Part shown: positions 3,001-6,000 of the stretch, piece after piece
Numbering within the stretch: position 1 is the first letter of the stretch
Layout: each line of letters opens with the position of its first letter
NCBI RefSeq assembly: GCF_003334405.1
Contig: NZ_QOWM01000003.1
Length of the DNA: 64,000 nt
Direction: 5' to 3' (one strand)
DNA from: Escherichia coli
Lineage (GTDB): Bacteria; Pseudomonadota; Gammaproteobacteria; Enterobacterales; Enterobacteriaceae
Program-made: the position numbers

Positions 3001-6000
3001 GCAAAAAACCGTCGCGAGTCAGGTAATTATTCAACTCGTTAATTTCAGTCAATGTATCCTCATGCAACATGACGGTTATGACATAACGGACAAGATCGCC
3101 ACTGGCCATAGTTCACCCCTTTGTTATCACATGACTTTTGAGCATAGTCGGAGAAACGCGTTGCCGACAGGTTGGTGATGATTCCCCCAATGCTGGGGGA
3201 ATGTTTTTGTTAGCGGGAAAGGTAAGCGTAAATTTTTTGCGTATCGTCATGGGAGCACAGACGTGTTCCCTGATTGAGTGTGGCTGCACTCCCCGCAGCT
3301 ACGCCAAAACGAACCATCTCTTCAAGAGAGGCATTTTCTGCCAGTTTCAGTGTCATCGCGCCGACCATGCTGTCACCAGCGCCAACGGTACTCTGGCTTT
3401 TCACCGGTGGTGGCACCACCTGAATACAGTTTTCACTATCAACACCCAGCGCTCCTTGTGGACCCAGGGAAACGACAACCCGTTTGGCCTTGCCGCTATT
3501 AACGATTTCCTGCGCGGCTTTGCGGACATCGTCCGGCTGGGTGAGTTCGCGATTCACCAGCGCACTGAGTTCTTTTTGGTTAGGCTTAACCAACTCGATG
3601 TTACCAATTGCCAGTGCTGCACTTAACGCTTCGCCAGAACTGTCGACGATGCAGCGGATCCCTTGTTTTTGCGCAGCGGAAATCAGTTGGGTTAATTTTT
3701 CCAGCTTCACACCTGGCGGCAGGCTTCCGCTTATGACCAGGATGGCCCCGGATTCAATTTCCAGAACTTGCTCTTCAAGCTGGCGAAACTCATCTTCATT
3801 TAATGCCGCGCCTGGCATAACAAAACGATACTGCTCACCGCTTGCTTCCACATGTACGTGTAAATTCTGCCGGGTCCAGTCTTTGGCTTCTACAGTAGCG
3901 ACGGGGACATTTTCATCCGCCAACAGTGAAACCAGGTGTTCGCCGGTCGCGCCACCCGCCGGGAAGATCGCTGTGGCACTGCCTCCAAGATGGGCAATGG
4001 CGCGGGCGACGTTGATGCCGCCGCCCCCGGGTTCGAACACCGGTGCGGTACAGCGCAGTTTTCCTTCGGGATAAATTTGCGGGGTAATTGTTGCGCTATC
4101 GAGAGAGGGCGCAAGTGTCAACGTATAGATACGTACCATCATTTCCTCCTATAGGCTGATTTCAGTCTGGCACCGAATCAGCGGAAAGTGAAGAAATTAA
4201 CAATATGATTTATTGGAGCTTTATTTAAAATTTTGCAGATAAATATATATAAATAAAAATCTGTTTTCGCCACATGCTTATTCAAAAAATGAAATAAGAA
4301 TACATTGCTAAGTTATTCGCGCCTTTTTATAATTCGTTACCTTTCCAGGGACGCTAATCTTTGATCCTTAAGAAAGTTTCCGGGACCGCGATGGTCTCTT
4401 TTTTTGTTGTACGGACTCTTGATAAATGAAGCTTTTGAAGACAGTTCCTGCCATCGTTATGTTGGCGGGGGGCATGTTTGCGTCACTGAATGCAGCTGCC
4501 GATGATTCCGTTTTTACTGTCATGGATGATCCTGCCAGCGCTAAAAAACCTTTCGAAGGTAATCTGAACGCAGGATATCTTGCACAATCAGGCAATACGA
4601 AAAGCTCCTCACTTACGGCTGACACCACCATGACCTGGTATGGACACACCACTGCCTGGTCGCTGTGGGGGAACGCCAGTAATACTTCTTCTAATGATGA
4701 GCGTTCTTCAGAAAAATATGCGGCGGGCGGGCGTAGCCGTTTTAATTTAACTGATTATGACTATTTATTTGGTCAGGCAAGCTGGCTGACAGACCGTTAT
4801 AACGGCTATCGAGAGCGCGATGTGTTGACCGCGGGTTATGGGCGTCAGTTTTTGAATGGCCCGGTACACAGTTTCCGCTTTGAATTCGGTCCAGGTGTGC
4901 GTTACGACAAATATACCGACAATGCCAGTGAAACCCAGCCGCTGGGCTATGCCTCCGGGGCTTATGCATGGCAGTTGACTGACAACGCTAAATTTACGCA
5001 GGGTGTTTCGGTCTTTGGCGCGGAAGACACAACGCTGAACTCCGAAAGCGCATTAAATGTTGCTATTAATGAACATTTTGGACTGAAGGTGGCTTACAAC
5101 GTCACATGGAACTCTGAACCTCCAGAGTCTGCACCGGAACATACCGACCGTCGGACAACCTTATCGCTGGGCTACAGCATGTAAAATTATCTGCCGGACC
5201 GTGTTATGCGGTCTGGCTGTCTTCGTTTGTCACTGCTCAGCCCCAAATCATTGCTGCCCAACGTAGCAACAACATAGCGCCACAGATTGCCAGTAGCACC
5301 ACCACCATCTTCCAGTGTTTTTTATCAAAGCGTTTAGTCGGCATACCAGTGTCCTGCATATCTCTTGTGCGTGATAACGGAGTGTAACAAAAGGGACAGG
5401 CATCAAGGGATTTTTTGTTATTACAGCCGTCGGGTGGCGTTGTGCACATGGTCACTGTTTCTGCGTTTTATGAAAAAAATAAAATTATGTATCGATATAT
5501 ATCGTAAATAGCTGGTTATAAATACGTCTTTATTTCATCAGCACTAAAACTCAGGCTTTGGCTGATTGCATTAATAGCAGCATAATATGTTTCTACAGTT
5601 TTATAATGCTTATGATGAATGGCTATATGAACAGCTGACATGTTGTCATGATTTTTAGCGGCCAATAGTGTAAATAACTGATGTTGACTAAAAGAATGTT
5701 TTTTTGCAAAAGCACCCAGCGTCGATATATAAGATAACACGACGTCTTCATTACCCTTGCTCATGGCGATGTATAATGCAGGGGTTCCCTGTGCTGTAGC
5801 TCCTTTTAATAAATCCATGATGTTAGCTTTGCTCAACTTGTATTTAAAGGCGATGCCATTAATTTTAGAGAGGAACCGTGTGACACACAAAGGGTGATTA
5901 TTTTCCATTGCGGCGTATAATCCTGGCTCACCATCATGTATTTTCATGGCTAAAATACTCATCACCAGTTTTTTGTTTAAAAGCTCTTGTGCTATTGGAG

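Follow-up and report, generated by a model that had tools for sequence, protein, structure and literature searches.

Introduction

Escherichia coli encodes roughly 150 micro-proteins, only a minority of which have an assigned function, and, to our knowledge, all of the functionally characterised membrane micro-proteins of this species that are about as small as YniD (AcrZ, MgrB, MgtS, PmrR, CydX and KdpF) act via protein partners. Here, we analyse yniD as it is found at positions 5237..5344, on the minus strand, of a 64,000-nt stretch of E. coli DNA (contig NZ_QOWM01000003.1; this whole stretch is "the window" hereafter, and positions refer to it unless K-12 is named). With the pairs AcrZ-AcrB, MgrB-PhoQ, MgtS-MgtA/PitA and PmrR-LpxT, as well as with KdpF and CydX, YniD has in common the size class (29-49 amino acids (aa)), the single transmembrane helix, which for YniD is a predicted one, a ribosome-binding site of its own and the restriction to Enterobacterales, and the helix-helix packing of these proteins is the working analogy used below. 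The likeness has its limits, however, as YniD shows no sequence similarity to any of the six, is encoded outside any partner's operon (unlike KdpF and CydX), and, differently from the characterised micro-proteins, has a chain that seems to end in or at the membrane, without an extramembrane C-terminal tail, and has had no stress-specific induction found: both its ribosome footprints and its mRNA are unchanged between pH 5.8 and pH 7.6 (PMC10746267, Table S8).

Identity of the gene and boundaries of its product

That positions 5237..5344 are the known E. coli gene yniD, and that its product comprises just the 35 codons between these boundaries, is a joint claim to which we would assign a probability of about 90%. 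The window at 4009-12509 differs from E. coli K-12 MG1655 (1798000-1806500) by 4 mismatches in 8501 nt (99.95% identity), and the RefSeq coding sequence (CDS) yniD/b4535 of the latter (YP_588455.2, "uncharacterized protein YniD"; 1805165-1805272) falls on window positions 5344..5237 to the base, there being no difference between the two in amino-acid sequence, gene length, coordinates or neighbours. According to the sequence and the list of open reading frames (ORFs), the gene starts with the ATG at 5344-5342, stops with the TGA at 5239-5237 and encodes a product of 35 residues, MPTKRFDKKHWKMVVVLLAICGAMLLLRWAAMIWG, which is identical to UniProt YNID_ECOLI and recorded from no fewer than 1000 contigs. 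With the NCBIfam equivalog model NF041491, "small membrane protein YniD", this product scores 85.7 bits (the curated cutoff being 40 bits), and precomputed annotations also place it in Pfam PF28032. The hidden Markov model score, the ORF length, start and Shine-Dalgarno motif, the identity to K-12 and the synteny are thus all those of the YniD family. The locus is present in 5417 of 5426 complete E. coli genomes, with a median of one place per genome (megablast, window 5150-5520), and all of the E. coli records listed or inspected bear the label "small membrane protein YniD" on a CDS of 108 nt.

A preliminary description of this DNA, made from the sequence alone, had placed a 35-codon yniD at exactly these coordinates, inside a 72-codon ORF regarded as a probable over-extension. 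Both parts hold: the K-12 gene occupies the very same bases, and the conservation of the start codon, the stops upstream of it in other genomes, the contrast in selection between the two halves of the longer frame and the span matched by NF041491 all argue for the C-terminal 35 residues being the real product. The gene is already known, having long been part of the K-12 annotation and having a curated family model of its own, and the discovery value is small, as yniD has been annotated for years; the value is rather one of calibration, since a reader with nothing but the sequence had located the gene with single-base accuracy and had rightly dismissed the longer ORF.

Orthologues were collected by scanning one genome per species (GTDB r220) with a degenerate pattern for K-H-W-K-M-V-x-V. 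The scan yielded 75 loci, 61 of which encode a YniD-like peptide, and 60 of these, the window itself included, were evaluated; the genera represented are Escherichia, Citrobacter, Enterobacter, Kluyvera, Lelliottia, Yokenella, Pseudenterobacter, Huaxiibacter, Pantoea, Rahnella and Budvicia. At the codon aligned with the ATG at 5344, 50 loci have ATG and 7 have GTG (57/60), and a motif of the AGGA, GGAG or GGGA type precedes the start by about 5-10 nt in most of the 60 loci, as judged by eye and uncounted. Of the three exceptions, Budvicia begins one codon later, while one Rahnella has AGG (R. woolbedingensis, L073) and one Citrobacter ATT (Citrobacter sp. NCU1, L076) at this position; the remaining peptide is intact in both, and the latter two could reflect a rare start codon, initiation at an internal Met, recent pseudogenisation or a sequencing error. 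Upstream of the start, the number of in-frame codons free of stops ranges from 0 to 58, being at most 8 in 30 of the 60 loci and below 37 in 49.

When the eight codons fixed by the pattern are left out, the proportions of differing synonymous (pS) and nonsynonymous (pN) sites have medians of 0.76 and 0.10, respectively, with a pN/pS of 0.12, and the variable columns of the remaining 27 codons are distributed 17/14/26 over the three codon positions. Compared with E. albertii, the 35 codons show 17 differences, distributed 1/1/15, and compared with the locus of Escherichia sp. MOD1-EC7003 (L067) the distribution is 0/0/3. The 35 codons are, on these figures, under strong purifying selection, and an ORF that is conserved in at least four families of Enterobacterales, with pS near saturation and pN low, is clearly not one that arose by chance.

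Among 1.84 billion representative proteins, a profile search found just 29 matches at an expectation value (E) of 0.001 or below, one of which is a spurious repeat protein, the rest being either 34-36-aa cores or over-called/truncated ORFs. All of the named members belong to Enterobacterales, with Leclercia, Tatumella and Lonsdalea added to the genera given above, and among these matches the YniD peptide is never a domain of a larger protein. In the over-called database proteins, the N-terminal extensions are unrelated to one another and all converge on MPT[KND]RF. The remoter members keep the basic N-terminus and a C-terminal L-[LIF]-R-W-A-A-x-x-[WF]-G, with a single exception that is an over-called ORF, which suggests that the end of the helix predicted to lie in the periplasmic leaflet is the most constrained part of YniD. 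This R-W-A-A core at the C-terminal, predicted periplasmic helix end, along with the restriction of the family to Enterobacterales, is a modest addition to what was known of YniD.

Candidate promoter region and the upstream part of the 72-codon frame

The ORF that a mechanical search reports here (Table 1) holds the yniD frame as its 3' half. ORFs of this length are common in the region (a 2.8-kb section has 44 ORFs of 20 aa or more overlapping it), so the 72-codon frame is in itself no evidence. NF041491 gives the 72-aa translation 82.9 bits, its match being confined to residues 39-72; residues 1-37 have no family match in the NCBIfam scan, and a Pfam scan with a library that does not contain PF28032 finds nothing but a non-significant Cys-rich small domain (residues 11-35, independent E-value 0.07).

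Table 1. Coordinates of yniD and of the features around it in the window
Feature	Position	Strand	Basis or remark
yniD CDS	5237..5344	-	35 codons + TGA; K-12 mapping, NF041491, UniProt identity, purifying selection
Shine-Dalgarno AGGA	5352..5355	-	7-nt spacing to ATG; read from the sequence
Candidate extended -10 element TGTTACACT (TGnTAnnnT)	5381..5389	-	Conservation
Apparently non-coding 5' region	5345..5455	-	First 37 codons of the 72-codon ORF; contains the promoter element, 5' untranslated region and Shine-Dalgarno
72-codon ORF	5237..5455	-	Mechanical; GTG start at 5455
GC-rich hairpin	5193..5217	both	Between the convergent stops of ydiY (5184) and yniD (5237)
ydiY	4426-5184
pfkB	3210-4142
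arpB/espL1	5516-7415	-	Pseudogene; open remainder is a 471-aa ORF, 5516..6931

What is conserved upstream of the gene appears to be a promoter element in the DNA and not codons. The block TTTTGTTACACT (5381-5392, minus strand) shows no variation among the seven Escherichia-lineage loci aligned, whereas its flanks diverge, and 42 of the 43 Enterobacteriaceae loci have a TGnTAnnnT that begins 37-45 nt before the start codon. From this we infer a sigma-70-type extended -10 promoter, with transcription starting at about 5374 +/- 2, which corresponds to about 1805135 in K-12, and a 5' untranslated region (UTR) of about 30 nt, which is predicted to be unstructured (z = +0.99). As the start so placed lies inside the 72-codon ORF, the transcript would begin downstream of that ORF's start codons, and the "FCYT" seen when the upstream frame is translated looks conserved because of the promoter block. 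A promoter annotation for the TGTTACACT element was not found in the literature examined. Conserved as it is, and placed some 30 nt before the Shine-Dalgarno region, this candidate extended -10 promoter is a second modest addition, if the element is indeed what it seems to be. The "thrS/yniD" sigma-factor peaks of a Genomic-SELEX study were also considered as yniD promoters and rejected: by our own reckoning of the coordinates they lie well upstream, inside the arpB pseudogene, which that study ignored.

The remainder of the upstream stretch seems to evolve neutrally. Over the 84 nt upstream of the gene, E. albertii shows 30 differences, distributed 11/10/9 by codon position, of which 25 would be replacements and 5 silent, and the alignment of the seven Escherichia-lineage loci contains 1-nt indels upstream of the ATG and none within the gene. 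The preliminary description had named conservation of the full 72-codon frame across species as the finding that would overturn it; what the comparison yields instead is stops, indels and no codon-position bias, and the 37 in-frame codons upstream of the ATG at 5344 are, on this comparative evidence, best regarded as non-coding, unconstrained DNA that happens to stay open.

In Escherichia proper, homology to the other Escherichia-lineage loci fades about 15-25 nt upstream of the TG of the element, near the arpB/espL1 side. A separate pattern is seen in loci from which the arpB island is absent, namely in four of the Escherichia lineage (L005, L025, L058 and L069, two of them labelled E. coli) and two of Citrobacter (L019 and L050), where the DNA about 60-180 nt upstream of yniD is highly conserved and the yniD frame is open upstream for 47 codons (L005, L025, L019 and L050) or 17 codons (L058 and L069). 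In the Citrobacter locus L019 this region adjoins the divergent thrS, which starts about 305 nt from the yniD ATG, and the conservation in such island-free loci probably reflects the promoter and leader of thrS on the opposite strand, and not a coding sequence.

Predicted structure, detection and proposed mode of action of YniD

Residues 1-12 comprise five K/R and one D (net charge +4), and residues 13-35 form a 23-residue hydrophobic stretch with a mean Kyte-Doolittle value of 2.13 (3.04 over residues 13-27 alone), whose sole Arg is residue 28. AlphaFold2, run with a 19-sequence alignment, gives one helix over residues 3-34, with a mean predicted local distance difference test (pLDDT) score of 83.7. 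The charged N-terminus and single hydrophobic helix of the preliminary description are, thus, borne out, and YniD falls, by prediction, within the class of small regulatory inner-membrane proteins (a single transmembrane helix and at most 50 aa). The helix appears to end in the conserved motif RWAAMIWG. Under the positive-inside rule, the basic residues would keep the N-terminus in the cytoplasm, so that the chain would finish on the periplasmic side with no extramembrane tail. SPA-tagged YniD was reportedly detected by Hemm et al. in 2008. Detection of the untagged protein by mass spectrometry in minimal medium is attributed to Treitz et al., as cited in PMC12529367, and yniD is among the "previously known sORFs" (small ORFs) of ribosome-profiling tables (PMC10746267).

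The mode of action that we favour, with a confidence somewhat short of even odds, is that of an N-in/C-out micro-protein of the inner membrane, working inside the bilayer by packing its conserved face against a larger membrane protein. Transcription would proceed from yniD's own extended -10 promoter (TGTTACACT, 5381-5389), leaving a 5' UTR of about 30 nt; translation, as the comparison above shows, starts at the ATG at 5344 behind the AGGA and gives the 35-residue protein, and the gene would end at a hairpin that it has in common with ydiY. The basic N-terminal dodecamer would stay in the cytoplasm, residues 13-35 would span the inner membrane and the end, L-R-W-A-A-M-I-W-G, would sit at the periplasmic interface. 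As there is no soluble domain, action inside the bilayer seems the most likely, with a face made up of I20, C21, G22, R28, W29, A30 and A31 packing against a larger inner-membrane protein or against YniD itself, and such packing would modulate the activity or stability of the partner, in the way known for AcrZ, MgrB, MgtS and PmrR.

A number of observations weigh against this picture or parts of it. Our literature search on YniD found no function, partner, localisation or topology experiment, with some papers using the gene just to mark a map position beside thrS, and a PDB search found no chain with YniD, only an insignificant match to the integrin beta-3 transmembrane helix (E about 1). No co-transcribed partner is conserved, and the neighbouring genes differ among Enterobacteriaceae, Pantoea and Rahnella. 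Arg28 lies inside the hydrophobic stretch, which makes the exact span of the helix uncertain, while H10, W11 and C21 vary in the remoter members, and, as the scan pattern fixes codons 9-16, the conservation of K9-V16 is partly there by construction. As for the promoter, a consensus scanner that requires a -35 hexamer predicts none on the minus strand, neither yniD nor the coordinates of the predicted start site occur in a Cappable-seq supplement, and an RNA-seq compendium (PMC10392735) has only short unannotated fragments upstream and one antisense transcript.

The lack of a conserved neighbour that would suggest a partner is also what leaves some room for YniD acting on its own, as a homo-oligomeric or lipid-interacting helix that locally tunes membrane properties, in which Arg28 and the two Trp, in the periplasmic leaflet, would bind lipid-linked intermediates or the head groups of anionic lipids. 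The most conserved segment being the interfacial R-W-A-A-x-x-W/F-G at the extreme C-terminus is consistent with this, as are the small-residue positions of the helix, which are compatible with self-association; on the other hand, the characterised E. coli membrane micro-proteins of such size are generally known to act via protein partners, and we regard a stand-alone YniD as unlikely.

Packing against a larger membrane protein remains the preferred reading, and a toxin seems a far poorer candidate. A peptide of the type I toxin kind (as in Hok, Ldr, TisB, Ibs or ShoB) would depolarise or permeabilise the inner membrane and be repressed by an antisense RNA, and YniD does share with Hok, Ldr, TisB, IbsC and ShoB the build of a short hydrophobic single-helix peptide with charged ends, in its case a small one with a basic end. 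Moreover, an assembled transcript lies antisense to the 3' half of yniD (K-12 1805210-1805314, minus strand, i.e., window 5195-5299, plus strand; PMC10392735, supplementary file 4). A gene of this kind, however, would be expected to be patchy, multi-copy or mobile and weakly constrained, whereas yniD is single-copy (with the median of one place per genome given above), has a fixed synteny in the Enterobacteriaceae loci examined and is under strong purifying selection in several Enterobacterales families, as the median pN/pS of 0.12 indicates. Its Shine-Dalgarno motif is accessible and not sequestered, the ribosome-binding site being a good and unstructured one, and YniD is detectable in normally growing cells. 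A scan of 4300-7000 against Rfam found no RNA family at E of 1 or below, antitoxin families included, and the PADLOC and PHROG searches gave no significant match, the nearest being an Rz-like spanin at E 0.12. The antisense transcript is most simply explained by read-through from ydiY, and we consider the toxin reading very improbable.

Even less can be said for the 72-residue ORF being the true product, or else a further, long isoform specific to E. coli, translated from the GTG at 5455 or, as a 70-aa protein, from the ATG at 5449. Under this scenario, the insertion of arpB/espL1 directly upstream of the yniD core promoter would have created the 72-codon frame, which is open in every E. coli lineage examined, and espL1 read-through transcripts could allow low-level translation from the GTG at 5455, adding a Cys-rich N-terminal extension (C-x6-C-x8-C-x2-C); were it true, YniD would offer a view of a micro-protein in the course of acquiring a new cytoplasmic domain. 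The frame does remain free of stops over 41 upstream codons in each of the five E. coli lineages compared and over 17-47 codons in the other Escherichia-lineage loci, and the weak Pfam match mentioned above is one to a Cys-rich domain. Yet neither the GTG at 5455 nor the in-frame ATG at 5449 is preceded by a Shine-Dalgarno-like purine-rich motif, the ATG of K-12 at 5449 is AGG in all four of the other E. coli lineages, and the conserved promoter element lies downstream of both. Within E. coli, the upstream 37 codons have accumulated 5 nonsynonymous changes and 1 synonymous change, whereas the 35 codons are unchanged, four E. coli lineages that are up to 5% divergent in the region encoding the identical 35-aa protein (WP_001142445.1). 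Together with the in-frame stops in most genera, the 1-nt indels and even spread of changes over codon positions between Escherichia species, and residues 1-37 lacking a family model, this makes the long product, in our opinion, scarcely credible. Finally, the notion that the region is non-coding and conserved as a non-coding RNA or as part of the ydiY terminator region, to which the shared hairpin adjoining the ORF might lend some appeal, is effectively refuted by the third-position bias against E. albertii and L067, by pS near saturation with pN of about 0.1, by the start, Shine-Dalgarno-like motif and stop being largely kept, by the absence of an Rfam match and by the detection of the protein by mass spectrometry.

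Downstream hairpin and antisense transcript

The hairpin between the two convergent genes folds with -18.8 kcal/mol (z -3.9) on the plus strand and with -13.1 kcal/mol (z -2.6) on the minus strand, is scored as terminator-like on the plus strand and is conserved from one Escherichia species to another; read on the yniD strand, it has a weak T-run (AGATAATTTTAC). It is probably a shared bidirectional terminator of ydiY and yniD. The antisense transcript described above extends from just beyond the ydiY stop through this hairpin, and read-through of the ydiY terminator is its simplest reading.

Genomic neighbourhood

In K-12, yniD is flanked upstream by the arpB pseudogene on the same strand and followed by the convergent ydiY and then pfkB, with thrS lying beyond the arpB insertion. 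Four Enterobacteriaceae loci examined for gene order have thrS / yniD / ydiY / pfkB, yniD being transcribed on its own, namely those of Citrobacter (L019; pfkB is beyond the end of the locus), Kluyvera (L061), Lelliottia (L075) and Enterobacter (L011; thrS was not resolved). In Pantoea, the yniD homologue comes after a 142-aa ORF, which is osmC-like by reading alone, and a hairpin.

Eight Rahnella loci (L015, L055, L008, L027, L063, L073, L004 and L072) share, some 30-190 nt upstream of the yniD homologue, a conserved ORF for a product of about 52 aa with one hydrophobic helix; the ORF ends about 24-30 nt before the yniD start, and its product in L015 is MRTMEARNKAVILLSVILAAALLLIAFEWLADQAVPELKEQVIHYVDEHMAH. 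The two appear to be a tandem pair of micro-protein genes, and this pairing of the Rahnella yniD with a second small membrane ORF is a further modest addition. NCBIfam provides no name for this ORF, nor for ydiY or the arpB ORF.

The homologue of an ankyrin-repeat type III effector, arpB/espL1, that is inserted between thrS and yniD is a pseudogene in both K-12 and the window (Table 1). It carries a frameshift or an internal stop in several other E. coli and is annotated as intact EspL1 in JNEC-KY204 (L080, WP_021577557.1), while the other Enterobacteriaceae loci examined lack it, thrS adjoining yniD there. Insertion sequences (IS) have also reached the locus: in E. coli strain 720632, which is otherwise identical, an IS1A (L001 868-1565) lies between pfkB and ydiY, where the window has none and the gap is 283 nt, and an IS2 insertion in the arpB/yniD intergenic region has been described for a long-term stationary-phase lineage (PMC7858067).

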